Assembly: GCA_001507855.1 (NCBI GenBank)
Contig: LGEN01000009.1
Location: 10,621-74,620, forward strand
DNA: 64,000 nt
DNA from: Halomonas sp. 54_146
GTDB lineage: Bacteria; Pseudomonadota; Gammaproteobacteria; Pseudomonadales; Halomonadaceae
Direction of reading: 5' to 3'
Numbering within the stretch: position 1 is the stretch's first letter; each line of letters starts with the position of its first letter. Positions 30,975 to 55,441 of this stretch are shown here, piece by piece. The notes beneath the pieces are model-generated. The model made no database searches. It was not told where the DNA came from and was given only the letters and a program-made list of their open reading frames with translations. The position numbers and the translations under genes were made by a program.

Positions 30975-31005
30975 GGCATCATGCTCCTGTAATAAATGAT
31001 GAAGA

Positions 31006-32765: not shown

Positions 32766-32851
32766 AAAAGCACCTTCAATCGATAGTCAGGCACGCAAAC
32801 TCGCGAGTGAGCCATCATTGGCCCACTCGCAAGCGCTTTGGTCAGGCAGGG

Positions 32852-34765: not shown

Positions 34766-34793
34766 GTTCGAAAGGCGAGTTCGAAGGGCGAAC
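34766..34793. promoter_or_regulatory. Tandem PcaR-type operators upstream of pcaB
   Basis: GTTCG-AAAGG-CGAGT (34766) and GTTCG-AAGGG-CGAAC (34779). Confidence 0.75.
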
Positions 34794-36315: not shown

Positions 36316-36351
36316 TGTTCGCATTGAGAATATATGTTCGTCAAACGAACA
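36316..36351. promoter_or_regulatory. PcaR-type operator pair upstream of pcaIJF
   Basis: TGTTCG-TCAAA-CGAACA (36335-36351) preceded by TGTTCG-CATTG-AGAATA. Confidence 0.8.
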
Positions 36352-37213: not shown

Positions 37214-37986
37214 TGAGTCTGGAATATACCTCTTCTGAAATGATGACCGTGACCGCTGCACGGGCGCTGGAAAACGGCACCACCTGCTTTGTAGGGATTG
37301 GCTTGCCTTCCGAGGCTGCCAACCTGGCGCGGCTGACCCACGCCCCCGACGTGGTGCTGATTTATGAATCCGGCACGCTGCAAACCAAGCCTGATGTACT
37401 GCCGCTTTCGATCGGTGATGGCGAATTAGCCGAAACCGCGCTAACCACCGTTGCCGTACCGGAAATGTTCCGCTACTGGCTGCAGGGCGGCAAAATCAAC
37501 GTGGGCTTTTTAGGCACCGCGCAAATCGACCGCTATTGCAACCTTAACACCACGCTGATTGGTGACTACCGCGAACCCAAGGTACGCCTGCCCGGCGGCG
37601 GCGGTGCGCCGGAAATTGCCACCAACGCCGGTGAAGTGTTTATCACCCTCAAGCACTCCAAGCGGGCGTTTGTGGATAAGGTCGATTTTGTCACCACGCT
37701 GGGCTTTGGCCGCGACGGCAAAGGGCGTGATAACGTGCCCAATATCGGCAAAGGTCCCACCCGTGTGATCACCGACCTGTGCGTGATGAAGCCTGACCCC
37801 GAGACCAAAGAACTGGTGGTGGTGTCGCTGCACCCGGGCGTCACCCGCGAGGAAGTGATTGACGCCACCGGCTGGGACATTCGCTTTGCCGAGCAGCTGG
37901 AAAGCACGCCTGAGCCAAATGCCAACGAGCTTGAAATTCTACGTGAGCTGAAAGCGCGTACCGAGCGAGCCCACGCGGGCGCATAA
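37213..37986 (+). CDS. pcaJ: 3-oxoadipate CoA-transferase subunit B
   Basis: CFVGIGLP, catalytic IYESG, RLPGGGGAPEIA. Confidence 0.9.
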   Translation: MSLEYTSSEMMTVTAARALENGTTCFVGIGLPSEAANLARLTHAPDVVLIYESGTLQTKPDVLPLSIGDGELAETALTTVAVPEMFRYWLQGGKINVGFLGTAQIDRYCNLNTTLIGDYREPKVRLPGGGGAPEIATNAGEVFITLKHSKRAFVDKVDFVTTLGFGRDGKGRDNVPNIGKGPTRVITDLCVMKPDPETKELVVVSLHPGVTREEVIDATGWDIRFAEQLESTPEPNANELEILRELKARTERAHAGA

Positions 37987-37996
37987 GGAGTACTTT

Positions 37997-39214
37997 ATGA
38001 GTGATGTTGCCATGAGAGACGTGTTTCTTTGTCACCCACGCCGCACTGCCGTTGGCCGTTTTGGCGGCACCTTGGCCAGCGTGCGCCCGGATGATTTCGC
38101 CGCGAGCATCTTTAAAGCCGTACTAGCGGAGGCACCGGATCTCGACCCCGCGGCCATTGAAGAAGTGTTTATGGGCTGCGCCAACCAGGCCGGTGAAGAT
38201 AACCGCAACGTAGCGCGCATGTCGTCGCTGCTGGCGGGCATTCCCACCTCGGTACCCGGCACCACCATGAACCGCCTGTGCGGTTCGGGTATGGACGCAG
38301 TGGGCACGGCGTTTCGCGCTATTAAAGCCGGCGAGATGGAGCTGGCGCTGGCCGGCGGCGTGGAATCCATGTCCCGCGCGCCTTATGTGATGGGCAAGGC
38401 CGATAGCGCTTTCACTCGTGGGCAAAAAATTGAAGACACCACCATTGGCTGGCGCTTGATCAACCCGCTGATGAAGAAAGCGTTTGGGGTGGATTCGATG
38501 CCGGAGACGGCAGAAAACGTCGCCGAGCAGTTCAATATCTCTCGCGAAGATCAGGACGCCTTTGCCCTGCGCTCGCAGCAAAAAGCCGCTGCTGCCCAAA
38601 AGGCCGGCCGCTTTGCCCAAGAGATTACGGCGATTGAGATTCCCCGCCGCAAGCAGGAGCCGCTGATTTTTGATACCGATGAGCACCTGCGGGAAACCAC
38701 CCTTGAGAAGCTGGCAGGTTTGCCCACGCCGTTCCGTGACGGCGGTAGCATCACCGCGGGTAACGCTTCAGGCGTTAACGACGGTGCGGCCGCCATGCTG
38801 GTCGCCAGCGAAACCGCGGTTAAACAGCACGGCCTAACACCGATGGCTAAAATTATCGGTATGGCCACGGCAGGCGTTGAGCCACGCATCATGGGCTACG
38901 GCCCGGTTCCCGCCGTGCAGAAGCTGCTTAAGCGTACCGGCATTTCCATGGACGACATCGACGTATTTGAGTTTAACGAAGCCTTTGCTGCTCAGGCGCT
39001 AGCCTGTACGCGCGACCTGGGCCTGAAAGACGACGACCCGCGGGTGAACCCCAACGGCGGCGCGATTGCACTGGGCCACCCGCTGGGCATGTCCGGCGCA
39101 CGGCTGCTGCTTACCGCCGCCCACGAGCTGCAAAACAGCGGCAAGCGCTACGCGCTATGCACCATGTGCGTAGGTGTTGGCCAGGGTATCGCCACGCTGA
39201 TCGAACGCGTTTAA
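37997..39214 (+). CDS. pcaF: 3-oxoadipyl-CoA thiolase
   Basis: [45 protein letters not shown]. Confidence 0.93.
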
Positions 39215-39225
39215 CGGAGAACGTC

Positions 39226-40395
39226 ATGGCTTTTCATACGATTAATGGCCGCAGCGTGGCTTACCGGCTGCTCGGTTCAAAAGTAAACCCCCTCGTGGTG
39301 CTGGCGCACCCCTTGGGCATGAGCCAAGCCGTGTGGGACGACGTAATTCCCGCGTTGCTGCCCCGCTACCGCGTGCTGACCTGGGATTTACCCGGCCACG
39401 GTGCCAGCCAAGCGGTGAGCGGTACGCAAATTACCCCCGCTGATTTGGCCGCTGAAGCGTTGGCGCTGGCAGAGCTTGCGGGCGCTGCGCGCTTTCACTT
39501 TGCCGGTACCTCTATCGGTGGCGTGGTTGGCCAGCAGCTGATTGCCGAGCATAGCGAGCGCCTGCTTTCCGCCACGCTGACCAACACCGGCGCGGTAATC
39601 GGTAACGCGGAGCTGTGGAACACCCGCGCTGGCCGCGTTCGCCAGGAAGGGCTGGCGGAGATGTCTGAAGAGATCGTGCCGCGCTGGTTTGCCCCAACAG
39701 CGTTTGAAGCAAGCCCGGCGTTAAAAGCGGGTTGGTGCACTCAGATGGGTCGTGGCGATGATGAGTCTTACGCGCAGCTGTGTGAAATGCTTGGCCGCGA
39801 TACCTTCACTGGCAAATTAGCAGCCAAGCAGGCCAAGGTGCAGCTGTTCGGCGGCAGCGAAGATCTGGCCACGCCGCCCGCCACGCTGGAAGCGCTTGCC
39901 GCTGAACTCGATGGCGCACCGCTGGAGGTGTTTAACGGCGTGGGGCATGTGCCTTCAGTAGAAGCGCCGGCGCTGTTCGCGCAGAAGCTACTGGCAGTGA
40001 TGGCGGCTGATTTAGGTGATGTTGCCAACCACGGCGTGGCTTACGCTGCCGGCCTTGAGACCCGCAAGCAGGTATTGGGCGAAGAGCACGTTGAGCGTTC
40101 TACCGCCAACGCCAACAGCCTGGATGCGCCTTTCCAGCAGATGATTACCCGCCTGGCTTGGGGCGAGCTGTGGAGTAACGACGACTTAACCCGTCGTGAG
40201 CGCAGCATGATCACCACCGGGATTCTCGCTGCCCTTGGCCGCGAAGAGCTAACGCTGCACTTAAAAACCGCCAAGCGTATTGGGCTGACTGAGGCCGAGC
40301 TGCGCCAAGTACTGATGCACGTGGCGATTTACGGCGGCGTACCGGCGGCTAACCACGCCTTTGCGCTGGCCAAAGAGCTGGGCTGGGGCGAGTAG
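39226..40395 (+). CDS. pcaL: Fused 3-oxoadipate enol-lactonase / 4-carboxymuconolactone decarboxylase (PcaD-PcaC, PcaL-like)
   Basis: Hydrolase GTSIGG, GSEDLATP, GVGHVP; then CMD domain GLETRKQVLG...AWGELWS...RRERSMIT...HVAIYGGVPAAN in one 389-aa frame. Confidence 0.88.
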   Translation: MAFHTINGRSVAYRLLGSKVNPLVVLAHPLGMSQAVWDDVIPALLPRYRVLTWDLPGHGASQAVSGTQITPADLAAEALALAELAGAARFHFAGTSIGGVVGQQLIAEHSERLLSATLTNTGAVIGNAELWNTRAGRVRQEGLAEMSEEIVPRWFAPTAFEASPALKAGWCTQMGRGDDESYAQLCEMLGRDTFTGKLAAKQAKVQLFGGSEDLATPPATLEALAAELDGAPLEVFNGVGHVPSVEAPALFAQKLLAVMAADLGDVANHGVAYAAGLETRKQVLGEEHVERSTANANSLDAPFQQMITRLAWGELWSNDDLTRRERSMITTGILAALGREELTLHLKTAKRIGLTEAELRQVLMHVAIYGGVPAANHAFALAKELGWGE

Positions 40396-40473: not shown

Positions 40474-41415
40474 ATGCTGAACGCACGGATTAAGCTGCGC
40501 CACCTGCAAGCGTTTCTTGAGGTGGCGCGCCAGCGCAGCTTTGCCCGCGCGGCTGAGCGGCTGTCGATCAGCCAGCCGGGCATTTCCAAAACCATCCGTG
40601 AGTTGGAAGATACGCTCGCTGTTGCATTGTTCGAGCGCACCCCGCACGGCGTTTCGCTTACCCAGGCGGGCTTAACATTGCTTCGCCATGCAGGGCCTGC
40701 TGTGCGCGCCTTGGAAGAAGGCGTAGAAGCCCTGCAGGCGGTGCAAACCGGCGCGCACTGGCTGCGCGTTGGCACGCTGTCTACCGTTGAAAGCCGGCTA
40801 CTGCCCGAAGCCCTGCGCCGCTGGCAGGCTAACACCACCACCGAGCGGGGCGCGCAGGTCGTTACCGGCACCAGTGCCTTTTTGCTCTCGCGTTTACGGC
40901 GCGGGGAGCTGGATGTGGTGGTTGGCCGCATGACCGAAGCGCGCGAAATTCAAGACCTGAGCTTTGAACATCTGTATTACGAACGTCTTCAGCTGGTGGT
41001 TCGCCAAGGCCACCCGCTGCTGGCCGAGCAGGCGCTAGGTGCCCACAACCTCTGCGCGTACCCCTGGATTATCCCACCGCCGCAAACCACCCTACGCCAG
41101 CAGGTTGATAGCTTTTTTGTCCGCCATGCGCTTTTGCCGCCGCCCCTGCGCATCGAGACGCTGTCGCTAGCGCTTGGCCGGCGTTATGCCCTGATTGGCG
41201 AAGCCATTTGGGTAGCCCCAGAAGAGGCGGTGCGCTCTGCGATACAGCGCGGTGAGCTGTGTGAACTTTCCCTGCCTCTAGAGCAACACGGCGGTTCGGT
41301 CGGGTTATGCATCAACCGTTCGTTGCGCCCTTCGCTTGCCGCTGAAGCCTTTTGTGAAGTGCTGCGCGAAGTCGCCGCCGACGTGGTGAAGGGCTATCAC
41401 GCTGAAAGCTCATAA
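40474..41415 (+). CDS. pcaQ: LysR family regulator PcaQ
   Basis: RIKLRHLQAFLEVARQRSFARAAERLSISQPGISKTIRELE; directly upstream of pcaHG. Confidence 0.85.
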   Translation: MLNARIKLRHLQAFLEVARQRSFARAAERLSISQPGISKTIRELEDTLAVALFERTPHGVSLTQAGLTLLRHAGPAVRALEEGVEALQAVQTGAHWLRVGTLSTVESRLLPEALRRWQANTTTERGAQVVTGTSAFLLSRLRRGELDVVVGRMTEAREIQDLSFEHLYYERLQLVVRQGHPLLAEQALGAHNLCAYPWIIPPPQTTLRQQVDSFFVRHALLPPPLRIETLSLALGRRYALIGEAIWVAPEEAVRSAIQRGELCELSLPLEQHGGSVGLCINRSLRPSLAAEAFCEVLREVAADVVKGYHAESS

Positions 41416-41427
41416 CCCATAGGTTAT
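41412..41427. promoter_or_regulatory. PcaQ-type operator upstream of pcaHG
   Basis: ATAACC-CATA-GGTTAT, overlapping the pcaQ stop codon. Confidence 0.8.
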
Positions 41428-41508
41428 GAGGGTAGGGTAAGTTATTAATTGGCAGGTCGCGCATTAACCACGACACTAATGGTTTGTTTCAATCAATGAG
41501 ATAATTGT

Positions 41509-42240
41509 ATGCAAAATGACAATAAACGCTTTGTGACACGCGACCGCAATTGGCATCCGCCCGCCTATGCGCCGGGCTATAAAACCTCGGTGGCGCGTTC
41601 CCCCCAGCAGGCGCTGGTGAGCATGCAACAACCCACGGTATCTGAGCTGACCGGCCCAGACTTCAGCCATCTGCGCATGGGCCCTCACGATAACGACCTG
41701 CTGCTGAACTTTCGCCAAGACCCTCAGCATCAGGGCTTGCCGCAGGGTGAGCGGATTATCATGTTTGGCCGGGTAGTCGATCAGTTTGGCAAGCCCGTAC
41801 CGCACACGTTGGTTGAGATGTGGCAAGCCAATGCGGGTGGCCGTTACCGGCACAAAAACGATAAGTACCTGGCACCGCTAGATCCTAACTTCGGCGGTGT
41901 AGGTCGCTGCTTGACCGATGAGCAGGGTATGTACCGTTTCCGCACCATCAAGCCCGGCCCTTACCCGTGGCCGAACGATATGAACAGCTGGCGGCCTGCG
42001 CATATTCACGTCTCAGTAACTGGCCCTGCGATTTCCACCCGGCTGATTACCCAGATGTATTTTGAGGGCGACCCGCTAATTCCCCTGTGCCCGATCGTGC
42101 ATACGCTGAAAGACCCGCTCGCGGTTGAAACGATGATTGGGCGGCTTGATATGGCGCACAGCAAACCGATGGACTGCTTGGCCTATCGCTTTGACATCGT
42201 GGTGCGCGGCGAGCTGCAAACCTATTTTGAAAATCAATAG
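41509..42240 (+). CDS. pcaH: Protocatechuate 3,4-dioxygenase beta subunit
   Basis: [21 protein letters not shown]...[16 protein letters not shown]. Confidence 0.97.
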
Positions 42241-42270
42241 CTGAAAACCAATAGCCGAAAACCAATAAGG
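42235..42270. repeat. 14-bp stop-codon echo repeat after pcaH
   Basis: CAATAGCTGAAAAC, CAATAGCCGAAAAC, CAATAAGG. Confidence 0.85.
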
Positions 42271-42285
42271 CCAGGGGAAATAAAC

Positions 42286-42918
42286 ATGAAGCAGCCTAAT
42301 AGCCAGCCGACCAGCGAACTGATGCTGCGGGAAACCGCCTCACAAACCGCTGGCCCCTACGTTCATATTGGTCTTGCTCTTGCGGCGGCGGGTAACCCCG
42401 TGCGGGATGAAGAGATCTGGAACGAGATGGCTAAGCCCGATGCCGAAGGCGAGCATATCGAAGTGGTCGGTACCGTTATTGATGGTAACGGCGATTTAGT
42501 GCGCGATGCATTTGTTGAAGCGTGGCAGGCCGATGCCAACGGTAACTATCAAGCCGATTACGACCTGAGCAAACCGTTTAATAGCTTTGGGCGTACCGCG
42601 ACGACGTTTGATCACGGCAGCGAGTGGTCGCTAACCACCATCAAACCCGGTGCGGTGCAGCACCCTAGCGGCCAACCAATGGCACCGCACATTAACCTTG
42701 CGCTGTTTGCGCGTGGGGTGAATATTCACCTGCAGACGCGGCTCTATTTTGACGATGAAGCCGATGCCAATGCCAAGTGCCCCGTGTTAACACGCATCGA
42801 GTCACCGGCACGCCGACAGACGCTGATCGCTAAGCGTGAAGAGGTCGACGGCAAGGTTCGTTACCGGTTGGATATTCGCTTGCAGGGGCAGGGCGAGACG
42901 GTATTTTTCGATTTCTAG
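42286..42918 (+). CDS. pcaG: Protocatechuate 3,4-dioxygenase alpha subunit
   Basis: ETASQTAGPYVHIGL, WQADANG, APHINLALFARGVN, TVFFDF. Confidence 0.97.
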   Translation: MKQPNSQPTSELMLRETASQTAGPYVHIGLALAAAGNPVRDEEIWNEMAKPDAEGEHIEVVGTVIDGNGDLVRDAFVEAWQADANGNYQADYDLSKPFNSFGRTATTFDHGSEWSLTTIKPGAVQHPSGQPMAPHINLALFARGVNIHLQTRLYFDDEADANAKCPVLTRIESPARRQTLIAKREEVDGKVRYRLDIRLQGQGETVFFDF

Positions 42919-43053: not shown

Positions 43054-43243
43054 CTATGAGGGCTTCAAAGCGACAAGTGCTGCCGGTGACGGTAAGGCGG
43101 CTTGAAGGGCGTCAGCGGCTGCTTAGACATAGACGAATGTCGATTAGCCCTAGGCCTCATAGTGAACTAATGTGGTGGCTCAGAGCGAACTACTATTCGC
43201 CATACGAACTTATAATAATCCAAAAAAAATCCTGGAGGCTCCT

Positions 43244-44275
43244 ATGAAAATGACCCTATCCCGCTGCGTGTTGGCAGCAGCGATTGCTGGCCTAGCCGTC
43301 AGTTCCGCACAGGCAGAAACGACGCTGCGTATGGCGCATTTTTGGCCAGGCGCTTCCGGTGTTAACGAAGATGTTTTGCAAGCCTGGGCGGATACCATTG
43401 CCGAGGAGTCTAATGGCGACCTGACGGTTCAGATGTTCCCTTCCGGCACCTTAGCCAAGCCAGATTCCATTTATGAAGCCGCCGCAAACGGCATTGCGGA
43501 TATTGGTGCCACGGCTCAGGGCTATACCGCTGGGCGCTTCCCGCTTTCACAAATTGTGGAGCTACCGGGCGTTGCCAGCACCGCAACACAGGGTGCCTGT
43601 GTTCTGCAGACGCTTTATGACGAGGGCCATTTAGATAGCGAATACGAAGACACCCGCCCGCTATTTATGTTTACCACCGGGCCTGGCGGTATTCATACCA
43701 TCGACACCGATGTGCAAACACCTGCCGACCTAGAAGGAATGCGCATTCGTCGCCCCACCGCCGTTGCCGGTGAAATGCTAGAAAATATGGGTGCGATTCC
43801 GGTAGGCATGCCTGCTCCCGATATCTATACCTCTATGCAGCGCGGCGTTATTGAAGGCCTGAGTTTTCCGTGGGAAGGCTTAAAAGGCTTTCGCGTCAAT
43901 GAGCTAGTGAATTACCACACCGAAGTGCCGTTTTATACGCTGATCTTCGTTGCCACCATGAACCAGCGCGCCTATGACGGCTTAACCGCCGAGCAGCAGG
44001 CGGTGATCGACAATAACTCCGGCATGAAGTGGGCTGAAAAAGCCGGCGCAGTGTTTGATCAACTGGATGTAGAAGGTAAGCAAGAAGCGGTTGATGCGGG
44101 CCATACCATTCGTGAAATCGAAAACCCGCTGGACCACCCCGACTGGCAAGCGCCGCTGCAAACCGGCATTGAAAACTATCTGACGCAGCTGGAAGAGCGC
44201 GGATTAGACCAGGCGCGAGAGGTTTATGAAGCTGCGCTGGCCGCCAGTGAGTCTTGTGGTGCCCAACAGGGGTAA
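43244..44275 (+). CDS. dctP: TRAP substrate-binding protein (aromatic acid type)
   Basis: Signal peptide; MFPSGTL, IVELPG, DLEGMRIRRP; SD GGAGG. Confidence 0.9.
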   Translation: MKMTLSRCVLAAAIAGLAVSSAQAETTLRMAHFWPGASGVNEDVLQAWADTIAEESNGDLTVQMFPSGTLAKPDSIYEAAANGIADIGATAQGYTAGRFPLSQIVELPGVASTATQGACVLQTLYDEGHLDSEYEDTRPLFMFTTGPGGIHTIDTDVQTPADLEGMRIRRPTAVAGEMLENMGAIPVGMPAPDIYTSMQRGVIEGLSFPWEGLKGFRVNELVNYHTEVPFYTLIFVATMNQRAYDGLTAEQQAVIDNNSGMKWAEKAGAVFDQLDVEGKQEAVDAGHTIREIENPLDHPDWQAPLQTGIENYLTQLEERGLDQAREVYEAALAASESCGAQQG

Positions 44276-44282
44276 GGTTTTC

Positions 44283-44828
44283 ATGCGGTCTTCTTTTGAT
44301 TTTCAACACGTCCTGTATAGGGCCAGCCATTGGCTGGCCCTCATTTGTCGCTTGGTAGCGGGAATCGCACTGATTGGCCTGCTGGCGGTGACTATCGCTG
44401 ATGTCAGCACGCGCTATCTTTCCCGGGTAACCGAAGGCGCGATTGCGTTGCGCGTTTCCGGCAGTGTGGAGTTAGTCAGCTATTTAATGCTGTTCGCGCT
44501 ATTAGCTGCGATGGCCGCTAACGTGGAGAAGAGCCAAGTGGTGGTAGAAGCGTTCTCACACGGGTTGCCGAAAACGATAAAAAATCGCCTACAAGGCTTG
44601 TTTTTCCTCGGCTTTATGGCATTGGGGCTGATTTTGTTTGTGGGGTTGCTGGATTCAGCCGCGGCCGCTAGTCGGCACGGCGAGATAACCCAAGACCTGC
44701 GGATGCCCATGGGGCCGATTTATCAGCTGGCAGCGGTGCTCAGTTTGCTATTGGGGATACGTAGCTTTATTCACGCCTTATTAGGCGTTATTTATGCGGC
44801 AGGTGAGGAGACAACTCATGGGGAGTGA
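44283..44828 (+). CDS. dctQ: TRAP small permease DctQ
   Basis: 4 TM helices; DVSTRY...GSVELVSY; TQDLRMP. Confidence 0.85.
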   Translation: MRSSFDFQHVLYRASHWLALICRLVAGIALIGLLAVTIADVSTRYLSRVTEGAIALRVSGSVELVSYLMLFALLAAMAANVEKSQVVVEAFSHGLPKTIKNRLQGLFFLGFMALGLILFVGLLDSAAAASRHGEITQDLRMPMGPIYQLAAVLSLLLGIRSFIHALLGVIYAAGEETTHGE

Positions 44829-46107
44829 AGCAATCGGTGCCATCGGGTTAGGGCTGTTATTGGTACTGATGATTTTGCGCGTACCGGTCGCCTTAACCAT
44901 GCTTATTGTGGGGGTAGTGGGGTTTGCACAAATTATTAGTTGGGATGCCGCCATTGCCCAACTGAAAACCGTGCCCGTCGAAGTGCTTTCCAACTACAGC
45001 TTCAGCGCCGTGCCCATGTTTATTTTAATGGGCGTACTGGCGGCCCATTCGGGCATGGCCGGTAAGCTGTTTGATTCAACCCGCGTTATTTGCGGGGGCT
45101 GGAAGGGCGGCTTGGCGATTGCGGCGGTGGGCTCTTGCGGTATTTTCTCCGCGATTTCCGGTTCTTCGTTAGCCACGGCGAGCACCATGACCCGGGTAGC
45201 ATTGCCGGAAATGGAGCGCTATGGCTACAACCGTGGCTTAGCGACCGGCGCGCTTGCCGCTGGCGGCACGCTGGGCATTATGATTCCGCCCAGTATCGCG
45301 CTGCTTATCTACGCCATTCTTACCGAGCAGTCTGTTGGCGATATGTTCATGGCCGGGTTGATTCCCGGTTTGCTAGGGCTGGTGATGTATTCACTGACCA
45401 TTACGGTCGTGATGTATCTGCGCCCCTCCCTGGCGGTAGCAGGAGAACCGACCAGTTGGAAAGATAAACTGCTTTCGCTGACCGGCTTAGTGCCCTTCTT
45501 TGGCGTTTTCCTGGTGATGATTTTAGGTATCTATTTTGGTGCCTTTACGCCGACGGAAGGGGCCAGTGTTGGCGCGTTTGCCACGCTGCTTTACGCCTTA
45601 GTAAAAGGCATGCGCGGTGCGCAGCTATGGCGCAGCGTACAAGAGACGTTGGCGCTTTCTGCCGTGGTGTTTTTTATGCTGGTGGGGGCTGAAACGCTCG
45701 GCTACTTCATCTCGGTGTCGCGCATTTCGTTTTCCATTACTGACCTGCTCTACGGTATGGATCTCACGCCTATCGTCGTGGTGCTGTGCATTCTTGCGCT
45801 CTACTTTGTGCTGGGCATGTTTATGGACTCTATCGCGATGCTGGTGATCACCGTGCCGGTGGTGTATCCGATTATTCAGGCCATGGGCATCGACCCCATT
45901 TGGTTCGGTATTTTGACCGTACTGACCGTTGAGTTGGGGCTCATGACCCCGCCGGTGGGCATGAATGTGTTTGTAATAAAAGCGATGGCACCGCACGTTG
46001 GGCTGGGTGAGATTTTTAAAGGGGTCGCCCCGTTTGTGGTCTCGGATTTAATACGCTTGGCGCTATTAATCCTTTTCCCGGTGCTTTCTACCTTCTTCTT
46101 GCTTTAA
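44818..46107 (+). CDS. dctM: TRAP large permease DctM
   Basis: SAVPMFILMG, SGSSLATA, GGTLGIMIPPS, GLMTPPVGMNVFV. Confidence 0.93.
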   Translation: MGSEAIGAIGLGLLLVLMILRVPVALTMLIVGVVGFAQIISWDAAIAQLKTVPVEVLSNYSFSAVPMFILMGVLAAHSGMAGKLFDSTRVICGGWKGGLAIAAVGSCGIFSAISGSSLATASTMTRVALPEMERYGYNRGLATGALAAGGTLGIMIPPSIALLIYAILTEQSVGDMFMAGLIPGLLGLVMYSLTITVVMYLRPSLAVAGEPTSWKDKLLSLTGLVPFFGVFLVMILGIYFGAFTPTEGASVGAFATLLYALVKGMRGAQLWRSVQETLALSAVVFFMLVGAETLGYFISVSRISFSITDLLYGMDLTPIVVVLCILALYFVLGMFMDSIAMLVITVPVVYPIIQAMGIDPIWFGILTVLTVELGLMTPPVGMNVFVIKAMAPHVGLGEIFKGVAPFVVSDLIRLALLILFPVLSTFFLL

Positions 46108-46159: not shown

Positions 46160-47071
46160 TTAACGCGCTTGCGACTGACGAATGCGAAAGTCGCGAGGTG
46201 AAAGCGCGGTATTGCGCTTAAAAAAGCGGGTGAAGTAGGCAGGTTCAGAGAAGCCCAAGCGGTCAGAGACTTGGCCGATAGTCATATTGGTATAAGTTAG
46301 CTGGCGCTTGGCTTCTAGCAGTAAGCGTTCATGCAGTAATTGCAGAGCGCTGCGTCCAGCGAGTTGGCGGCACAGCATGTTTAAGTGCGCGCTACTTACC
46401 CCTAATTGCTCGGCTAACGCTTCAATACTGGGTTGCTCACGGTAGTGCGCCTCAATCAGCGTTTGGTAGCGCTCTAAATGCTGCCGACCTTTGTCGCTTT
46501 GGCGGGGGCCATAGCGTTTTATAGGGTTCTCTGTGCAAGCACCAAGACGCGAAAGCTCCACCACCAAGGCTTGAATCAGTGCTTCGAGCAGCCTATCTCG
46601 GCCAGGGGCAGGCTGGCGGTACTCCTGGTCGATTTGACTAACCAGCGTAACTATTCGTTTTTGTGGGTTTGATTCGCTCTGGCTTGAAAGGTGCAGAGGA
46701 TAGAAGTCTGCTTGTTTAAGGGTGCTGCTTTCACCCATTACTGCATGTAAGTGATCCGCCAGCGGTTTCGCCAGGGTAATAATATGACCTTGAACATCGG
46801 GCGAGAAAAGAAAACCGTGAATGGCCATTGCGGGCACAACGATAGCGCAAGCGCTCTGTAGCCGATGCGTTGTTCCCTCCAGCGCTAGCTCAACGCTGCC
46901 TTGGGTAATCAGCAGAATATGCACCAGGTCAGCATGGCGATGTGGTCGAATGCGCCAATCATGCAGCTGGCTGCGCTCAGGAATGGATTCGCAGTGGAGC
47001 AAATCTGGCGTGGGCCAGTGCTGCGTTTCGCCATAGAGTTTAAATACCGGAACGGCCGTTCTCGACGACAT
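46160..47071 (-). CDS. pobR: AraC family regulator PobR
   Basis: VPVFKLYGE...DLLHCESIPERSQLHDWRIRPHRH; LGFSEPAYFTRFFKR; divergent from pobA. Confidence 0.88.
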   Translation of the reverse strand: MSSRTAVPVFKLYGETQHWPTPDLLHCESIPERSQLHDWRIRPHRHADLVHILLITQGSVELALEGTTHRLQSACAIVVPAMAIHGFLFSPDVQGHIITLAKPLADHLHAVMGESSTLKQADFYPLHLSSQSESNPQKRIVTLVSQIDQEYRQPAPGRDRLLEALIQALVVELSRLGACTENPIKRYGPRQSDKGRQHLERYQTLIEAHYREQPSIEALAEQLGVSSAHLNMLCRQLAGRSALQLLHERLLLEAKRQLTYTNMTIGQVSDRLGFSEPAYFTRFFKRNTALSPRDFRIRQSQAR

Positions 47072-47206: not shown

Positions 47207-48472
<1,266 letters not shown>

Positions 48473-48500: not shown

Positions 48501-48542
48501 GCCCAAGCGTCTGCTTGGGCTTTTTTTGCTCGGGCTTTTTTT
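48501..48542 (+). terminator. Intrinsic terminator after pobA with duplicated GGGCTTTTTTTGCT tail
   Basis: GCCCAAGC-GTCT-GCTTGGGC-TTTTTTT, then GCTCGGGCTTTTTTTGCT. Confidence 0.85.
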
Positions 48543-48850
48543 GCTTGCGCGTCGGCTTAAAAGAGCCGTGCGTGGCTGATATGGAAGCGGATTGGAGCAT
48601 CCATTAGTTGTAAGCGATATGTCATAACGTAGCGGAATATCTATTTTCTATGCCATCGCCATGAATAGGGTGGGCTCAAAACCAACTGCTTTTTAGCTAA
48701 TAACTAGCTGATTTATTTAGTGATAACGCGTTATTTCTCATAACGTTTGTTAGCTCGATTAGGTATGCAAAGCAACTTGAGAGGTATTGGCAGCGCGGCC
48801 TTTTAACCGTAACACTTATTTTTACTGTCACTACCATGCAGGTTATTACC

Positions 48851-50347
48851 ATGTCGCAAACTTCAGGGGCAATCGAACAGGCACCCAATGCGGTTGCTTT
48901 CAAGCCTATTTCGCTTGTCCTGGGTATCCTCATTGGCCTGGGTGTTTTCTTTCTATTGCCCGAGACCCTAGCCTTCAATGCACGGCTTGTAGCTGCCATT
49001 GCTATGCTGATGGCCATTTGGTGGATGACCGAGGCGATCCCTATTCCGGTCACCTCGCTATTACCTCTGGTGCTTTTTCCCTTCTTCGATATTGCCTCGA
49101 TAGGTGAGACAGCCTCGCCCTATGCCCACAGCATTGTGTTCTTAGTGCTGGGGGGCGTGCTTTTAGGCTTGGCGACACAACGCTGGAATCTCCATCGACG
49201 CTTTGCGTTACTGACAGTGCTCGCCGTGGGCACCAAGCCCGCTCAGATCGTTTTTGGCTTAATGTTTGCTAGCTGGTTTATCACCATGTGGGTTAGCAAT
49301 ACGGCTACTGCGGTGATAATGGTGCCGATAGGTGGCTCCATTATTGCCTTAGTAAAGTCGTTAGGTAACGGCGATGACACGCCGAAATTCTCAGCGGCTG
49401 TGCTGCTCGGCATTGCCTATGCGATCACCATTGGCTCGATGGCAACGTTAATTGGTCAACCTCCGATGGCGCTGATGCGTGCTTATATGGAGAGCGCTCA
49501 TGGGCTGGACATTAGTTTCGGCCACTGGATGCTATTAGGGGTGCCTTTCTCTACCACTATGCTGATTGCGGCCTGGTTTGTGCTTAACAAAATCGTATTT
49601 CGTGCGGAAGTCGAGGACATTCAGGGCGGGCGCGCGATGATCGAATCTGAACTCAAAGCCATGGGGCGGCTCGCAACAGAAGAAAAGCGGGTGTTGATGG
49701 TCTTCGCGGGCGCGGTGTTTTTTTGGGTCTGCGTACCACTGATCGGTAAGCTTTCAGCGGTTCAGGCAGTGCTGCCTTGGTTGTCAAATATTAACGACAC
49801 TAGCGTCGCCATTCTGGCGGCTATTTTGATGTTCGTCATTCCAGCGACGAAAGGGCAGGGCACATTACTAGAGTGGACGGCCACCCGCGACGTACCCTGG
49901 GGAGTGCTGATTTTGTTCGGCGGTGGCCTAACCCTTTCTGCACAGTTCACTGCCACCGGGCTGAGTGTCTGGATTGGCGAAAGCGTGTCTGGTTTGGCTG
50001 GGTTACCACCGATTCTCATACTGGCTGTCACTGCGCTGGTCATCATCTTATTAACCGAGCTGACCAGCAATACGGCCACCGCAGCGGCCTTCTTCCCCAT
50101 CATGGGAGCCATCGCTGTTGGGCTGGATATTGATCCTTTTCTGATGACTATCGTGGTGACCTTTGCTGTCAGCTGCGCTTTCATGTTGCCGGTGGCGACA
50201 CCTTCCAATGCCGTGGCCTTCGCGACGGGAGACTTGCCCATTAAGAACATGATACGCGCAGGCATTTGGCTCAATATGATTGGTCTGCTGGTGATTATCG
50301 TAGCGCTCTACACCATTGTTCCTCTGGTCTTCGATGTCTCATTCTGA
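48851..50347 (+). CDS. DASS/SLC13 family di/tricarboxylate transporter
   Basis: WWMTEAIPIPVTSLLP, MWVSNTATA, LIGQPPM, TELTSNTATA, FMLPVATPSNA. Confidence 0.92.
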   Translation: MSQTSGAIEQAPNAVAFKPISLVLGILIGLGVFFLLPETLAFNARLVAAIAMLMAIWWMTEAIPIPVTSLLPLVLFPFFDIASIGETASPYAHSIVFLVLGGVLLGLATQRWNLHRRFALLTVLAVGTKPAQIVFGLMFASWFITMWVSNTATAVIMVPIGGSIIALVKSLGNGDDTPKFSAAVLLGIAYAITIGSMATLIGQPPMALMRAYMESAHGLDISFGHWMLLGVPFSTTMLIAAWFVLNKIVFRAEVEDIQGGRAMIESELKAMGRLATEEKRVLMVFAGAVFFWVCVPLIGKLSAVQAVLPWLSNINDTSVAILAAILMFVIPATKGQGTLLEWTATRDVPWGVLILFGGGLTLSAQFTATGLSVWIGESVSGLAGLPPILILAVTALVIILLTELTSNTATAAAFFPIMGAIAVGLDIDPFLMTIVVTFAVSCAFMLPVATPSNAVAFATGDLPIKNMIRAGIWLNMIGLLVIIVALYTIVPLVFDVSF

Positions 50348-50476
50348 ACCTATTTAACAGGTGTCTTCGCACAACGTGACCGGTGTGACTGGCCGGTATG
50401 ACGGGTAGTTGCTTAGATGCTATTCGGGTGTGATGATCGCCAACATCTGATTTATTGCGCTCACAATACAAACTAA

Positions 50477-50493
50477 TGTTCGTCATAAGAACA
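50477..50493. promoter_or_regulatory. PcaR-type operator upstream of the BKACE gene
   Basis: TGTTCG-TCATA-AGAACA, 15/17 identical to the pcaI operator TGTTCGTCAAACGAACA, just upstream of the SD. Confidence 0.75.
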
Positions 50494-50506
50494 AGTGGAG
50501 GTTTCC

Positions 50507-51340
50507 ATGTCTGATCAGCCTTGCATTATTTGCGTTGCCATTACCGGCAGCTTGCCGCGTAAAGAGAACAACCCGGCCGTGCCTATCACGGTTGAAGAGC
50601 AGATTGAAAGCACCCAAGCGGCGTTCGAGGCGGGCGCGACTATTGCCCATTGCCACGTGCGTAACGATGACCAAACGCCTTCTTCAGACCCTGAAAAGTT
50701 TGGCCGTTTGATGGAAGGGCTCAAGAAACACTGCCCTGGCATGATTATTCAGCTTTCTACCGGCGGCCGTTCTGGCGCAGGGGAAGCGCGGGGCGGGATG
50801 CTGCCGCTGAAGCCTGATATGGCCAGCCTCTCGGTGGGTTCCAATAACTTCCCTAATCGTGTTTATGAGAACCCACCGCAGCTGGTGGAGTGGCTTGCCG
50901 ATGAAATGCTGAAGTATGACATTAAGCCTGAAATCGAGGCGTTTGATTTGTCGCATATCCATCAGGCGGTGAGCCTTTCCAAGCAGGGTAAGCTCAAAGC
51001 CCCGCTTTACGTGCAGTTTGTGATGGGGGTTAAAAACTCAATGCCCGCAGACAAACCCACGTTTGATTTTTATATCGAAACGCTTAAGCGCTTAGCGCCA
51101 GACGCCCAGTGGTGTGGTGCCGGCATCGGTGCCAATCAGGCGGTGCTCAACGAATGGTCAATCGCCGCAGGCGGCCATACCCGCACCGGGCTTGAAGACA
51201 ACGTGCGCCTGGATAGCGCTACACTCGCACCTTCCAACGCTGCGTTGGTTGAGCGTACCGTGGCTCTGTGCGAAAAGTACCAGCGCCCGGTGGCTACCTG
51301 GCAGCAGGCGCGTGAGATGCTTGGGTTGAACAATGTGTAA
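50507..51340 (+). CDS. Beta-keto acid cleavage enzyme (DUF849/BKACE/Kce family)
   Basis: CVAITG...NPAVP, Zn ligands AHCHVR, LSTGG, KPEIEAFD, HTRTGLEDN. Confidence 0.93.
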   Translation: MSDQPCIICVAITGSLPRKENNPAVPITVEEQIESTQAAFEAGATIAHCHVRNDDQTPSSDPEKFGRLMEGLKKHCPGMIIQLSTGGRSGAGEARGGMLPLKPDMASLSVGSNNFPNRVYENPPQLVEWLADEMLKYDIKPEIEAFDLSHIHQAVSLSKQGKLKAPLYVQFVMGVKNSMPADKPTFDFYIETLKRLAPDAQWCGAGIGANQAVLNEWSIAAGGHTRTGLEDNVRLDSATLAPSNAALVERTVALCEKYQRPVATWQQAREMLGLNNV

Positions 51341-51638
51341 AAATGTTAGCTGCTACCCAACGGTGGGTGAAGGAACATACTCAATCACCATCGGATTGTT
51401 GTGTAGTCGTCTTTAAGGTGTCAGAGAGGGCTACTTACTTCGCGATATGTCAGTAGTCACCGGTAATTTTTCATAAAGCAGCCAGTATTATCCTTTTGTC
51501 GTAAATGTATTTTGTAGCGCGATGTGGTTGAGAACCCTAGCGGCCGCGGCAAATGGCTGTCGTATCGGGCTAACGGCTGAAGTGCTACGGCTTTTCTCAT
51601 TTCGTTATTTAAGGTATTTATGCTCATTTAGTGATTAG

Positions 51639-51667
51639 TGGTGCAGCGTTAAGCTGCACCATTTTTT
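51639..51667 (+). terminator. Intrinsic terminator in the BKACE-catB gap
   Basis: TGGTGCAGC-GTTAA-GCTGCACCA-TTTTTT. Confidence 0.75.
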
Positions 51668-51818: not shown

Positions 51819-51905
51819 GGAAAGGCACTTAAACAATATTGGTTTCTAAAATCAGATGCTACCAAACTGCAGCCTAGCTAATGATTGCCAGACGCTGGAG
51901 CCTGC

Positions 51906-53024
51906 ATGTCAACCGTCATCCAACATATTGAGACGCTGCTGGTCGATTTACCGACTATCCGTCCTCACAAACTCTCCATGACCACCATGGCCTGCCAAAC
52001 CATGGTGATTGTGCGCATGCGCCACTCCGACGGTATCGAAGGGCTCGGCGAAGGCACCACCATTGGTGGCTTGGCCTATGGCCCGGAAAGCCCGGAGAGC
52101 ATTAAGCGCAATATTGATACTTATCTAGCCCCTCTACTGGTCGGCCAGCCCTCTAACAATGTTCATCAGTTGCGTGCTCGGCTTAACCGCCATGCTCGCG
52201 GCAATATGATCGCCAAATCTGCATTAGAAACGGCTCTGTTGGATGCTCAGGGCAAGCGCTTGGGATTGAGCGTCGCCGAGCTGCTGGGCGGCGTACGTCA
52301 GGATCACTTGCCCGTACTATGGACGCTAGCCAGTGGTGATACCGCCAAAGATATTGATGAGGCCATGCTGCGTTTAGAACAGCGTCGGCACTGCGACTTC
52401 AAGTTAAAAATTGGTGCTAACCCGGTGGATCAGGACGTGCGCCATGTGGCGGCTATCAAGGAAGCGCTGGGTGATCGGGCCAGCGTGCGAGTTGATGTTA
52501 ATCAGGCGTGGGATGAATCCACCGCCGTTCGCGGTATTCAGGTGCTACAGGATGCTGGCATTGAGTTAATTGAGCAGCCCATTGGCGCTCGTGAACATGC
52601 CGGCTTAGTTCGCTTGGCTAACCGCTTCAATGTGCCAATGCTCGCCGATGAGGCGGTGCAAGATGCCCGCGACGGGCTTGATCTTGTGTGCGGCGGCTTC
52701 AGTGGTGCCTTTGCGCTGAAGATTGCCAAATCCGGCGGTATTTACGGGGTACTAGAGTTAGCTCACGTCGCCCAAGCGGCTGGCATTGGCTTATATGGCG
52801 GCACCCTGCTGGAGGGCACTATCGGTACGGCTGCCTCTCTACATGCCTGGGCAACGCTGCCAGCAATGGCCTGGGGCACGGAAATGTTCGGCCCGCTGCT
52901 GCTGCAAGACGACATCGTCGTTTCCCCTCTCAACTACACCGAATTTGGGGTGGAGTTACCGCAAGGGGCTGGGCTCGGCATCACTCTAGATGAAGATAAG
53001 TTGGCGCATTACTCACGCAAGTAA
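51906..53024 (+). CDS. catB: Muconate cycloisomerase
   Basis: VDLPTIRPHKLS, GEGTTIGGLAYG, FKLKIG, RVDVNQAW, LIEQP, LADE, YGGTLLEG. Confidence 0.96.
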   Translation: MSTVIQHIETLLVDLPTIRPHKLSMTTMACQTMVIVRMRHSDGIEGLGEGTTIGGLAYGPESPESIKRNIDTYLAPLLVGQPSNNVHQLRARLNRHARGNMIAKSALETALLDAQGKRLGLSVAELLGGVRQDHLPVLWTLASGDTAKDIDEAMLRLEQRRHCDFKLKIGANPVDQDVRHVAAIKEALGDRASVRVDVNQAWDESTAVRGIQVLQDAGIELIEQPIGAREHAGLVRLANRFNVPMLADEAVQDARDGLDLVCGGFSGAFALKIAKSGGIYGVLELAHVAQAAGIGLYGGTLLEGTIGTAASLHAWATLPAMAWGTEMFGPLLLQDDIVVSPLNYTEFGVELPQGAGLGITLDEDKLAHYSRK

Positions 53025-53043
53025 ACGTCACGTAAGTAAAAGC
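53014..53043. repeat. 15-bp stop-codon echo repeat after catB
   Basis: CACGCAAGTAAACGT, CACGTAAGTAAAAGC. Confidence 0.7.
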
Positions 53044-53097
53044 CGCAGTAAATAAAGCCATCGTTTGTGATCGCCCGCGATGAAAGAGGAGAGCCAT

Positions 53098-53388
53098 ATG
53101 CTGTTTCAAGTTGAGATGACCGTTAAGTTGCCGCCGGACATGCCTGCCGAGCAGGCAGCCAAGATCAAGGCAACGGAAAAGGCGTATTCCCAAGACCTGC
53201 AGCGCCAGGGTAAGTGGCGCCACTTGTGGCGGGTAGCGGGTAGCTACTCGAACGTCAGTATTTTTGACGTGGAAGACAACGCCGAGCTGCAAGAGTTGGT
53301 CAGCAATCTGCCGCTCTTCCCCTATATGGAGATCAGCGTCAAACCGCTGTGTCGTCACCCCTCTTCAGTGCGTGATGACGACAGCTAG
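53098..53388 (+). CDS. catC: Muconolactone delta-isomerase
   Basis: 96 aa; MLFQVEMTV, GKWRHLWRVAGSYSNVSIFDV, LPLFPYMEI...LCRHPSS. Confidence 0.97.
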   Translation: MLFQVEMTVKLPPDMPAEQAAKIKATEKAYSQDLQRQGKWRHLWRVAGSYSNVSIFDVEDNAELQELVSNLPLFPYMEISVKPLCRHPSSVRDDDS

Positions 53389-53454
53389 TTCTCCACATAA
53401 CACGCCAAATCGTATGACGACAACAACACCCCATAACAAACAGAGGGTTTCACC

Positions 53455-54429
53455 ATGACTGTAAAAATATTCGACACGCCCGAGGTTCAAGACTTCATCA
53501 AAACCGTGGCCGGCTTTGATAAAGCCGGTGGCAATGACCGCGCCAAGCAGATCGTCCATCGCCTGGTCAGCGACCTGTTCAAGCTGATCGATGACTTCGA
53601 TGTCACCGAGGAAGAGTACTGGGCCGGTGTCAACCTGCTCAATGCCCTGGGTAGCCAAACCCAGTTCGGGTTGCTCTCGCCCGGTCTCGGCTTTGACCAC
53701 TTCCTCGATATGCGTCAAGACGCCATCGATGCCGAAGCCAAGCGCACCGGCGGCACCCCGCGTACCATCGAAGGCCCGCTCTACGTGGCCGGTGCCCCGG
53801 AAGCGGAAGGCTTCGCCCGCATGGACGACGGCAGTGATCCCGATGCCGAGGTGATGTGGCTGACCGGTCAGGTGCGCGATGTCGACGGTACCCCGATCCC
53901 CGGCGCTAAGGTTGAAATCTGGCACTGCAACTCCAAGGGCGGCTACTCGTTCTTTGATCCCTCCCAGGATGAGTACAACATGCGCCGCACGATCTATGCG
54001 GACAGCGAAGGCCGCTACACCGCGCGCAGCATCATTCCCTCCGGCTACGGCGTGCCTGAAGGCGCCCCCACCGATGTGGTGCTCAAGTCCCTGGGCCGTC
54101 ACGGCGAACGCCCGGCGCATATCCACTACTTCGTCTCCGCACCGGGCCATCAGCACCTGACCACCCAGATCAACCTGGCGGGCGACCCCTACACCTTTGA
54201 CGACTTCGCCTTCGCGACCCGGGAAGAGCTGGTGGTGCCCGCTGAACGGATCGAAGATCCGGCCGAGATCGCCAAGCGCGACCTGGACGGCCCGTTCTCC
54301 CATGTGGTGTTTAACGTCGAACTGGCTAAAACCGAAGCCCCTGAGCTGCAAGTGCGTCACGCCCGCCCCCGCGCCAAGGAAGACGAGCAGGATCTCGCTA
54401 GCCAGTTGGCGGGTACCGCGAAGGTTTAA
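53455..54429 (+). CDS. catA: Catechol 1,2-dioxygenase
   Basis: GLGFDHFLD, GTPRTIEGPLYVAGAP, SIIPSGYGVP, RPAHIHYF. Confidence 0.97.
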   Translation: MTVKIFDTPEVQDFIKTVAGFDKAGGNDRAKQIVHRLVSDLFKLIDDFDVTEEEYWAGVNLLNALGSQTQFGLLSPGLGFDHFLDMRQDAIDAEAKRTGGTPRTIEGPLYVAGAPEAEGFARMDDGSDPDAEVMWLTGQVRDVDGTPIPGAKVEIWHCNSKGGYSFFDPSQDEYNMRRTIYADSEGRYTARSIIPSGYGVPEGAPTDVVLKSLGRHGERPAHIHYFVSAPGHQHLTTQINLAGDPYTFDDFAFATREELVVPAERIEDPAEIAKRDLDGPFSHVVFNVELAKTEAPELQVRHARPRAKEDEQDLASQLAGTAKV

Positions 54430-54538: not shown

Positions 54539-55441
54539 TTATGGGTAGCGGCCCATGAAGCGATCATCAACAAGCTTGTGTAAAATGGTGGTCGCTTCAT
54601 TCATGAGAAGTGATGGTTTTTCACCGCGGCGACGGCTGCAGACAACAGGTGAGGTGATTGTCTTGTCCGCCAATGCTACATAAGAAATACCATCTCGTTG
54701 TACGCGCTTTACCTCCTCAGGTACCAGTGTAATACCGATATCAGAGGCGACGAGGCTAAGTGCTGTCTGAACTTCGTTTGCTTCCTGTATGACCTCAACC
54801 TTTAAGCCTTGTCGGCGGAAAATACCTAGTACCATATCTGCCAAGCTAGGACGTGGTTTGGCGGGGAAAAGAATAAGTGGATAACGTGCCAATTCTTCGC
54901 ATGTAGGCGTAGTGCCCTCTAAAGGGTGACCGCTAGGAAGGGCAGCAATAAATGGCTCATTGAAGAGTATCTCTTGCTCTACGTCTGGATCATCAATGCG
55001 AAGACGTCCAAATCCCATGTCAATACGACCTGCTTTAAGCGCCTGAATTTGCTGTATGGTCGTAAGTTCTGTCAATGATATTTCCACATTCTCAATTTGA
55101 CGCAAGTCGCGAACCAGCATTGGAATCTGCCCATAAAAGATAGAGGGGACAAAGCCAATTCCAAATAGAGTTCGCTTGCTACGTGCCATGTGGCGTGTTG
55201 TATCAATAGTGACGTCTACTTTCTCCAAAATTTCTAAAGCACGCTGCTGAAAAAATATACCCGATGGTGTTAAGCGAAGGCCTCGCGAGCTTCTCTCAAA
55301 CAGTTCGACCCCAACTTCCTGCTCTAGCTGTTTAACTTGGCGCGAAAGTGGCGGCTGTGACATATGCAAGCGTTTAGCGGCACAGGTGAGATTAAGCTCT
55401 TCAGCGACAACGCAAAAGTACCTCAGGTGGCGTAATTCCAT
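54539..55441 (-). CDS. catR: LysR family regulator CatR/BenM-like
   Basis: MELRHLRYF...SQPPLSRQ, IGFVPSIFYG, FPAKPRPSLAD. Confidence 0.88.
   Translation of the reverse strand: MELRHLRYFCVVAEELNLTCAAKRLHMSQPPLSRQVKQLEQEVGVELFERSSRGLRLTPSGIFFQQRALEILEKVDVTIDTTRHMARSKRTLFGIGFVPSIFYGQIPMLVRDLRQIENVEISLTELTTIQQIQALKAGRIDMGFGRLRIDDPDVEQEILFNEPFIAALPSGHPLEGTTPTCEELARYPLILFPAKPRPSLADMVLGIFRRQGLKVEVIQEANEVQTALSLVASDIGITLVPEEVKRVQRDGISYVALADKTITSPVVCSRRRGEKPSLLMNEATTILHKLVDDRFMGRYP

Follow-up and report, generated by a model that had tools for sequence, protein, structure and literature searches.

The 64-kb window of the Halomonas sp. 54_146 genome analyzed here (the whole stretch C2:10621-74620, which amounts to 1.8% of the 3.56 Mb genome; positions below are counted from the first base of the window) encodes a BKACE (beta-keto acid cleavage enzyme) that is probably an accessory member of the regulon of the IclR-family regulator PcaR, cleaving 3-oxoadipate (beta-ketoadipate) and co-induced with the canonical exit from the beta-ketoadipate pathway catalyzed by PcaIJ and PcaF. 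The comparative results, taken together, make the membership of the BKACE gene in the PcaR regulon a well-supported prediction, as the original prediction had proposed: the gene is preceded by two putative PcaR boxes that recur in the same arrangement upstream of pcaI and are conserved in the promoters of orthologs. The features that carry this argument are the following (bit scores of individual sites come from the weight matrix described below).

50507-51340, forward strand: BKACE gene, intact, 277 amino acids; predicted 3-oxoadipate:acetyl-CoA acetyltransferase, the sole BKACE of the genome.
50497-50501, forward strand: Shine-Dalgarno sequence GGAGG, 5 nt upstream of the BKACE ATG, read directly from the sequence.
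50478-50492, no strand assigned: box 2 (GTTCGTCATAAGAAC), predicted PcaR operator and half of a double site, 13.9 bits, 14 nt from the ATG.
50459-50473, no strand assigned: box 1 (GCTCACAATACAAAC), an eroded form of the sequence GTTCGTAATACAAAT that is the consensus in the genus; it precedes box 2 by 19 bp and scores 7.2 bits.
26296-27075, reverse strand: gene for PcaR, an IclR-family regulator of the PcaR/PcaU/PobR subfamily (TIGR02431, 299.1 bits against a cut-off of 284.75).
27127-27141, no strand assigned: perfect palindrome GTTCGCAATGCGAAC, 52 nt upstream of the pcaR start, 23.3 bits, the top site of the genome, predicted to be autoregulatory.
34779-34793, no strand assigned: box GTTCGAAGGGCGAAC, before pcaB (ATG at 34866).
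36317-36350, no strand assigned: double box before pcaI (GTTCGCATTGAGAAT, 4 nt, GTTCGTCAAACGAAC), with a 19-bp spacing.

The 17-mer TGTTCGTCATAAGAACA is located at 50477-50493, upstream of the BKACE Shine-Dalgarno sequence; position 50477, originally taken as the beginning of the gene, is the first base of this box, and the open reading frame (ORF) begins with the ATG at 50507, its stop codon ending at 51340. At up to 3 mismatches, the 17-mer has one other match in the window, TGTTCGTCAAACGAACA at 36335-36351, 45 nt upstream of pcaI (0.08 expected), with which it shares 15 of 17 positions, exactly the identity to the pcaIJF operator that had been noted. The 15-bp core GTTCG-N6-GAAC occurs in the window four times with zero mismatches, always in intergenic regions (27127, 34779, 36336 and 50478), and the four sites precede pcaR, pcaB, pcaI and BKACE, respectively, all of them pca-related. 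The match of the BKACE box to the boxes at pcaB and pcaR also holds, with GTTCG-N5-(C/A)GAAC common to all four sites, and the cores resemble the experimentally defined operator of Pseudomonas putida PcaR, GTTCGATAATCGCAC (PMC12455658). The exact palindrome GTTCG-N5-CGAAC is found five times genome-wide, the same number as for the reversed control, so that there is no enrichment at the genome level; three of the five occurrences are in the pca cluster.

PcaR is the only protein of the PcaR/PcaU/PobR subfamily encoded in the genome, the next IclR-family protein being 30% identical, and it aligns with P. putida PcaR (PDB 8EJU) at 194.8 bits. Binding of these sites by PcaR is predicted by this combination of regulator and motif. 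It is very improbable that the palindrome is bound by a different regulator, for example, the TetR-family protein encoded at 34059-34742, directly upstream of the pcaB box, or that it binds no protein at all: despite the location of the tetR gene, the motif matches the P. putida PcaR site, the best site of the genome lies in the pcaR promoter both here and at 9 other Halomonadaceae loci, loci without PcaR show no boxes, and the conservation of the sites is far above the neutral level.

To rank the sites, we used a weight matrix trained on the sites in the pcaR, pcaI and pcaB promoters of other genomes and including no BKACE sites. Seven of the 18 top-scoring sites in the genome fall within the window. 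The top sites outside the window that were inspected (on contigs C43, C60, C69 and C65) lie within an MCP gene, rpoA, a cardiolipin-synthase-like gene and deoD, and were rejected as chance matches. Two further sites in the window precede transporter genes: the box ATTCGCCATACGAAC (43195-43209) is located before the dctP gene of the second TRAP system and is kept before the orthologous gene at two other loci (L048 and L050), and the box GTTCGTTGAGCGAAT (28202-28216) lies 38 nt upstream of the start (28164) of an AEC-family transporter. Judging from these boxes, the two transporters are possible members of the PcaR regulon.

Orthologs of BKACE with 91-98% identity are present in 18 of the 37 sampled genomes of the same genus. 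At 14 loci of the genus (hereafter, group A), the gene has the DASS symporter gene, pobA or pcaHG as one neighbor and catBCA as the other, and all 14 share one promoter layout: GATTTGACGCT, 17 nt, TATTTT, box 1 (GTTCGTAATACAAAT), 4 nt, box 2 (GTTCGCAATAAGAAC), GAGG and the ATG. In the box columns, conservation reaches at least 85%, whereas the four-fold degenerate sites of the same genes show a mean identity of 54%. The promoter module accompanies BKACE despite the differing upstream neighbors, and it aligns with the pcaI promoter of the window in its hexamers, its boxes and the 19-bp spacing of the boxes. In addition to the 14 group A promoters, the site is conserved at five loci (L047, L048, L050, L051 and L080), so that the operator is retained in orthologs, contrary to one of the outcomes named as refuting the original prediction.

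The same pattern extends to other Halomonadaceae, where PcaR-type boxes precede pcaR, pcaB and pcaI. A site equivalent to the pcaR palindrome is found 62-68 nt upstream of pcaR in other members of the family, and the 19-bp double box precedes pcaI or pcaF at five loci (L052, L053, L062, L064 and L067). The same double box, here containing a perfect palindrome, also stands upstream of BKACE in Billgrantia (L055 and L060), where the gene occupies the interval from pcaB to pcaI. Elsewhere in the family, BKACE follows shortly after pcaF, pcaDC or pcaG without a box of its own, suggesting that in these cases the gene sits inside PcaR-controlled pca operons. At the alphaproteobacterial loci, where pcaQ is present and there is no pcaR nearby, no PcaR-type boxes were found.

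The enzyme itself was assigned by several comparisons. The BKACE protein matches Pfam PF05853 (BKACE) over residues 5-274 (model positions 1-274) with 310.7 bits against a cut-off of 24.8, and the motifs listed in the original prediction are all present, namely H48-C-H50, S84-TGG and R226-T-G-L-E230-D231; E144 is present as well, alongside the Zn-binding and catalytic residues H48, H50, S84, R226, E230 and D231. We take these residues to correspond to the numbered residues of Kce, the enzyme that cleaves 3-keto-5-aminohexanoate. The alignment of the Zn-binding and catalytic motif residues with 3CHV and 3FA5 is gap-free; together with 3NO5, these two are the closest solved structures (DUF849 structural-genomics entries, 477 bits for 3CHV); Kce itself (2Y7D) scores 186 bits. 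Among the NCBIfam models, the equivalog NF053568 (3-oxoadipate:acetyl-CoA acetyltransferase) is the only one whose curated cut-off is exceeded (491.2 bits versus 350). The other BKACE subfamily models remain below theirs (165 versus 725 bits for the KAL-CLE fusion and 158 versus 430 bits for the dioxohexanoate enzyme), and an identity as Kce, the lysine-fermentation enzyme, was rejected because the protein scores 252.2 bits with that model, short of the cut-off of 382. The protein thus falls outside the Kce and dehydrocarnitine subgroups, and the enzyme assignment made in the original prediction stands. The NF053568 model is discriminating, given that nine orthologs encoded in the pca clusters of other taxa reach 490-502 bits and a 36%-identical paralog scores 220. 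The protein is best described as a predicted beta-keto acid cleavage enzyme with a TIM-barrel fold and Zn dependence that belongs to the 3-oxoadipate:acetyl-CoA acetyltransferase type and presumably acts on 3-oxoadipate in its host.

There is little reason to think that the physiological substrate is some other beta-keto acid, with the pca linkage due to a secondary activity or to where the gene happens to lie, and we consider this highly unlikely. Members of the BKACE family are often promiscuous, with activity profiles that overlap between groups (PMC4922564), and some relatives carry a second copy in a different cluster, beside an intradiol dioxygenase gene. This setting, however, would also be expected to give 3-oxoadipate, via maleylacetate. 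Furthermore, the NF053568 score is far above the cut-off and no other family reaches its own, pca, pob or cat genes are neighbors of BKACE at 60 of 80 related public loci from two classes of Proteobacteria (with pcaG directly upstream at 45), and a pcaHGBL-kce construct enables growth of Methylobacterium extorquens PA1 on protocatechuate (PMC12379598).

Within the genus, pcaJ is present in 27 and pcaH in 23 of the 37 genomes. All 18 genomes with BKACE also carry pcaJ, in line with the parallel route that had been envisaged, and 9 genomes have pcaJ without BKACE; this distribution identifies BKACE as an accessory, parallel exit from the pathway rather than a replacement of PcaIJF. Among the 80 loci, pcaI, pcaJ or pcaF is located within 8 kb of BKACE at 11 loci of Halomonadaceae and at one locus outside this family, so that the coexistence of BKACE with pcaIJF is the feature specific to Halomonadaceae.

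Several loci depart from this general picture. Four genomes of relatives (G001, G028, G021 and G023; loci L040, L042, L043 and L045) encode a second BKACE copy, 91-93% identical, that lacks PcaR boxes. At a distance of about 5 kb lies a cluster that encodes an intradiol dioxygenase sharing about 30% identity with CatA, along with an amidohydrolase, a dehydrogenase and a nitroreductase-like protein; this cluster may represent another 3-oxoadipate-yielding pathway. In G015 (L041/L017), a BKACE copy is divergently oriented to the gene for a 70%-identical PcaR paralog, with a double box. One ortholog (G005:C1:4738133-4738938; L018/L024) is split into overlapping frames (residues 3-101 and 103-275) and is either a frameshift pseudogene or a sequencing error. 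Between Halomonadaceae and Rhodobacterales/Hyphomicrobiales (L066-L126), the BKACE proteins are 75-84% identical, compared with 53-64% for PcaH, 43-56% for PcaG and 31-39% for PcaB; the high identity of BKACE between the classes points to either unusually strong constraint or inter-class transfer of the gene. A record named Nocardioides marinus (L083) contains a Rhodobacteraceae-type pcaQ/pcaHG/BKACE locus (78%) and is probably mislabeled or contaminated.

In the window, BKACE is inserted between the pob and cat modules, preceded by pobA and the DASS gene and followed by catBCA, about 10 kb from pcaIJF-DC and pcaHG. The pob, pca and cat genes around it constitute a neighborhood able to yield 3-oxoadipate.

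25761-26261, forward strand: aroQ.
27220-33865, reverse strand: AEC transporter, aroE-like gene, quiC and a TRAP system.
34059-34742, forward strand: TetR-family regulator.
34866-36206, forward strand: pcaB.
36395-40395, forward strand: pcaI-pcaJ-pcaF-pcaDC, the canonical two-step exit plus the enol-lactonase/decarboxylase (pcaF 688 bits, pcaDC 386 bits).
40474-42918, forward strand: pcaQ, pcaH and pcaG.
43172-46107, forward strand: second TRAP system.
46160-47071, reverse strand: AraC-type regulator.
47231-48472, forward strand: pobA.
48836-50347, forward strand: DASS symporter.
51637-51663, forward strand: strong intrinsic terminator, 11-bp stem and T run, about 300 nt downstream of the BKACE stop codon.
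51885-54429, forward strand: catB, catC and catA.
54539-55441, reverse strand: LysR-type regulator.

The CoA_trans domain was identified in both the PcaI and the PcaJ subunits. Apart from the terminator, the 3' region of BKACE folds just marginally better than shuffled sequences, and an Rfam scan of the whole window, including the leader of the DASS gene, yielded no matches. This leader (48536-48835) is long and contains blocks that are kept in about 10 relatives (CATCCATTAGTYGTAAGC, TTAGGTATRCAAAKCAACYTGAGAGGTATTGGC and CGTAACACT) as well as the 12-bp palindrome ATAACGCGTTAT. No PcaR box was found before the DASS gene, with the exception of L051, where the gene adjoins a PcaR paralog.

We propose the following scheme for the induction and function of BKACE. 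PcaR is predicted to bind the pair of 15-bp inverted repeats located, with a spacing of 19 bp, downstream of the core promoter and upstream of the ribosome-binding site, and its effector is expected to be beta-ketoadipate, by analogy with P. putida. The PcaR of P. putida is reported to repress or activate transcription according to the location of its site (PMC12455658), and either mode may apply at the BKACE promoter. Beta-ketoadipate formed through the protocatechuate or the catechol branch would induce the one-step exit and the PcaIJ/PcaF exit together, given that the pcaIJF-pcaDC promoter has the same double-box layout, and the flux might be divided between the two exits. BKACE would convert 3-oxoadipate and acetyl-CoA to acetoacetate and succinyl-CoA, the housekeeping succinyl-CoA:3-oxoacid CoA-transferase ScoAB (contig C69) would activate acetoacetate, and the resulting acetoacetyl-CoA would either be cleaved by thiolase or enter polyhydroxybutyrate (PHB) synthesis.

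The sink genes for acetoacetate exist. Contig C69 encodes, next to each other, canonical ScoA, ScoB and BdhA, which score 247, 329 and 324 bits, respectively, and each exceed the cut-off, and the genome also encodes a class I PhaC (759 bits) and PhaB (345 bits), the latter represented by two genes. Acetoacetyl-CoA synthetase, another potential sink, has no match above the cut-off in the genome. A PcaR-like site, GTTCGCAAGACGATC (C57:42837-42851, 14.0 bits), was detected 31 nt before a phaB paralog in a PHB-related cluster and, if functional, would link PcaR to PHB, but it is probably a chance match because it falls within the final part (3' end) of the ORF that precedes phaB and its right half is degenerate; the only orthologous locus (in G022) is 99% identical and thus too close to show conservation.

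The same sink genes bear on the possibility that BKACE acts in series with PcaIJ and PcaF, which, by using the C4 analogs, would turn acetoacetate into acetoacetyl-CoA and then into two acetyl-CoA molecules, such that one regulon would encode a three-enzyme route in which BKACE primes the succinyl-CoA required by PcaIJ. In general, 3-oxoacid CoA-transferases and thiolases frequently take both C4 and C6 substrates; in the genus, BKACE is never found without pcaJ, in other Halomonadaceae it is inserted beside pcaI or pcaF, and the lack of a detectable acetoacetyl-CoA synthetase in this genome fits such a route. However, a dedicated ScoAB pair is encoded elsewhere in the genome, the nine genomes mentioned above use pcaIJF without BKACE, Alphaproteobacteria use BKACE with no pcaIJF nearby, and the PcaI/PcaJ pair (36395-37986) belongs to a divergent CoA-transferase type that scores 38 and 46 bits on the ScoA and ScoB models, far below the cut-offs. 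Thus, action in series appears unlikely, and a parallel exit remains the preferred interpretation.

What a parallel exit might offer is a separate question. By simple arithmetic, the net stoichiometry of BKACE, ScoAB and thiolase combined equals that of PcaIJ and PcaF, so any advantage of BKACE would be either kinetic or a matter of acetoacetyl-CoA supply for PHB. Overflow, balancing of CoA and feeding of polyhydroxyalkanoate metabolism, the purposes that were originally suggested, are speculation. We tentatively consider, as a possible albeit doubtful explanation, that BKACE is kept beside PcaIJF because it delivers a C4 unit (acetoacetate, converted to acetoacetyl-CoA by ScoAB) to PHB and so bypasses the unfavorable thiolase condensation. 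Priming of the succinyl-CoA for PcaIJ may be a further role of BKACE, and the choice between respiring and storing aromatic carbon would then be a branch point set by PcaR. If so, the one-step exit could bias aromatic or lignin-derived carbon toward PHB, which bears on lignin valorization.

A number of observations weigh against the proposed co-induction or limit what can be attributed to it. Taken alone, the BKACE box is weak: at 13.9 bits, it ranks 18th genome-wide, compared with 17-23 bits for the canonical sites, it carries an A at position 11 of the palindrome, where C is nearly invariant, and the loose core pattern (up to 2 mismatches) is not enriched, with 128 occurrences observed versus 151 expected. 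Because the box is not very strong on its own, the functional case relies on the comparison across genomes. The true promoter hexamers at pcaI, with which the BKACE module aligns, are ambiguous. The substrate specificity ascribed to BKACE derives from an equivalog hidden Markov model and gene context, and since nine pcaJ-bearing genomes of relatives lack BKACE, any benefit from the predicted second exit must be conditional.

Further observations concern the promoter of this particular strain: among the 14 promoters, it shows the strongest erosion of the -35 (GTGATG) and -10 (TATTGC) elements and of box 1, which has 4 changes. The consensus scan detects no sigma-70-like promoter at 50400-50500, whereas the same scan recognizes TTGACG-17-TATTTT in a relative (L008), and no terminator was found between the DASS gene, which has its own conserved leader devoid of a PcaR box, and BKACE. 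With no recognized promoter and no intervening terminator, read-through from the DASS gene may feed the transcription of BKACE and could be the source of much of it. The erosion of the core promoter and box 1 may signify regulatory decay or a shift to such read-through. In the extreme, the box in this strain would be a decaying remnant, with BKACE transcribed mainly by read-through or constitutively and PcaR control weak or lost. We regard this as improbable: despite the divergence of the promoter and box 1 (50410-50476), box 2 is still intact and, placed ahead of the Shine-Dalgarno sequence and after whatever promoter is upstream, could still allow bound PcaR to act as a roadblock to read-through, and the BKACE ORF is intact and 96-98% identical to its orthologs.

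Several components of the proposed scheme have precedents. Activity of BKACE enzymes on beta-ketoadipate and the presence of their genes in pca clusters are attributed to Bastard et al. 2014 in the papers that cite that work (PMC8963497, PMC12379598, PMC4922564), and as far as these accounts convey (PMC8963497, PMC12379598), the function and the shunt put forward in the original prediction are not new. The same is true of the control of BKACE by a regulator of aromatic catabolism: in Ralstonia eutropha H16, Suvorova and Gelfand (2019) placed a COG3246 gene in the CatM/BenM regulon, noted the frequent association of this gene with pcaHG and proposed a function in beta-ketoadipate cleavage (PMC6449761). 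In Methylobacterium, kce has been proposed to replace pcaIJF (PMC8963497, PMC12379598, bioRxiv 10.64898/2026.03.02.709203), and experimental evolution in this genus pointed to acetoacetate CoA-transferase and PHB, so that the link between acetoacetate, the CoA-transferase and PHB has been published as well (bioRxiv 10.64898/2026.03.02.709203). In the literature covered, with subscription journals and RegPrecise outside the coverage, we found no account of an IclR-type or PcaR operator before a standalone BKACE gene, nor of systematic coexistence with pcaIJF in Halomonadaceae; the predicted wiring of BKACE to PcaR alongside pcaIJF is the only new element. This finding overturns nothing in the current understanding and amounts to a sound, incremental annotation. 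In practical terms, the gene can be named 3-oxoadipate:acetyl-CoA acetyltransferase instead of "DUF849" or "3-keto-5-aminohexanoate cleavage protein", and BKACE can join the listed PcaR regulon of Halomonadaceae, with the two transporters as candidates. Halomonadaceae present a natural case of coexistence and apparent co-regulation of both known exits from beta-ketoadipate, whereas alphaproteobacteria have the one-step exit alone.

Compared with the known systems, the predicted enzyme shares with the 3-oxoadipate:acetyl-CoA acetyltransferase of Cupriavidus necator H16 the NF053568 family, the length, the intact Zn-binding and catalytic motifs and the linkage to the beta-ketoadipate pathway. 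The COG3246 gene of R. eutropha H16 is likewise predicted to be under the control of an aromatic-pathway regulator (PMC6449761), but there a catBCD-COG3246 unit is the predicted target of CatM/BenM, which is of the LysR type, whereas in the window the predicted regulator is the IclR-type PcaR and its target is a gene that stands alone and has a double operator to itself. Kce has the same fold and catalytic machinery (186 bits to 2Y7D) but functions in lysine fermentation, unlike the BKACE of the window, which belongs to an aerobic aromatic-catabolism cluster and scores 252 bits against the Kce cut-off of 382. The kce genes of Methylobacterium and Rhodobacteraceae (pcaHG-kce-pcaB) are orthologous to BKACE, the alphaproteobacterial copies being 75-84% identical and scoring 490-502 bits with NF053568, and the proposed reaction and the downstream connection to the CoA-transferase and PHB are the same. 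In those bacteria, however, kce replaces pcaIJF and is located inside the pcaHG operon without a PcaR box, whereas in the genus of the window BKACE stands beside pcaIJF in every genome that has it, and a PcaR-type operator is present. Finally, the PcaR regulon of P. putida, for which the published descriptions that we could reach list no BKACE member, shares with the one described here the regulator subfamily (TIGR02431; 195 bits to 8EJU), the 15-bp GTTCG...CG.AC operator core near or after the -10 element (GTTCGATAATCGCAC at pcaIJ) and targets that include pcaIJ, pcaF, pcaB and pcaR itself; the distinction of the window is that its pcaI and BKACE sites come in pairs spaced by 19 bp.

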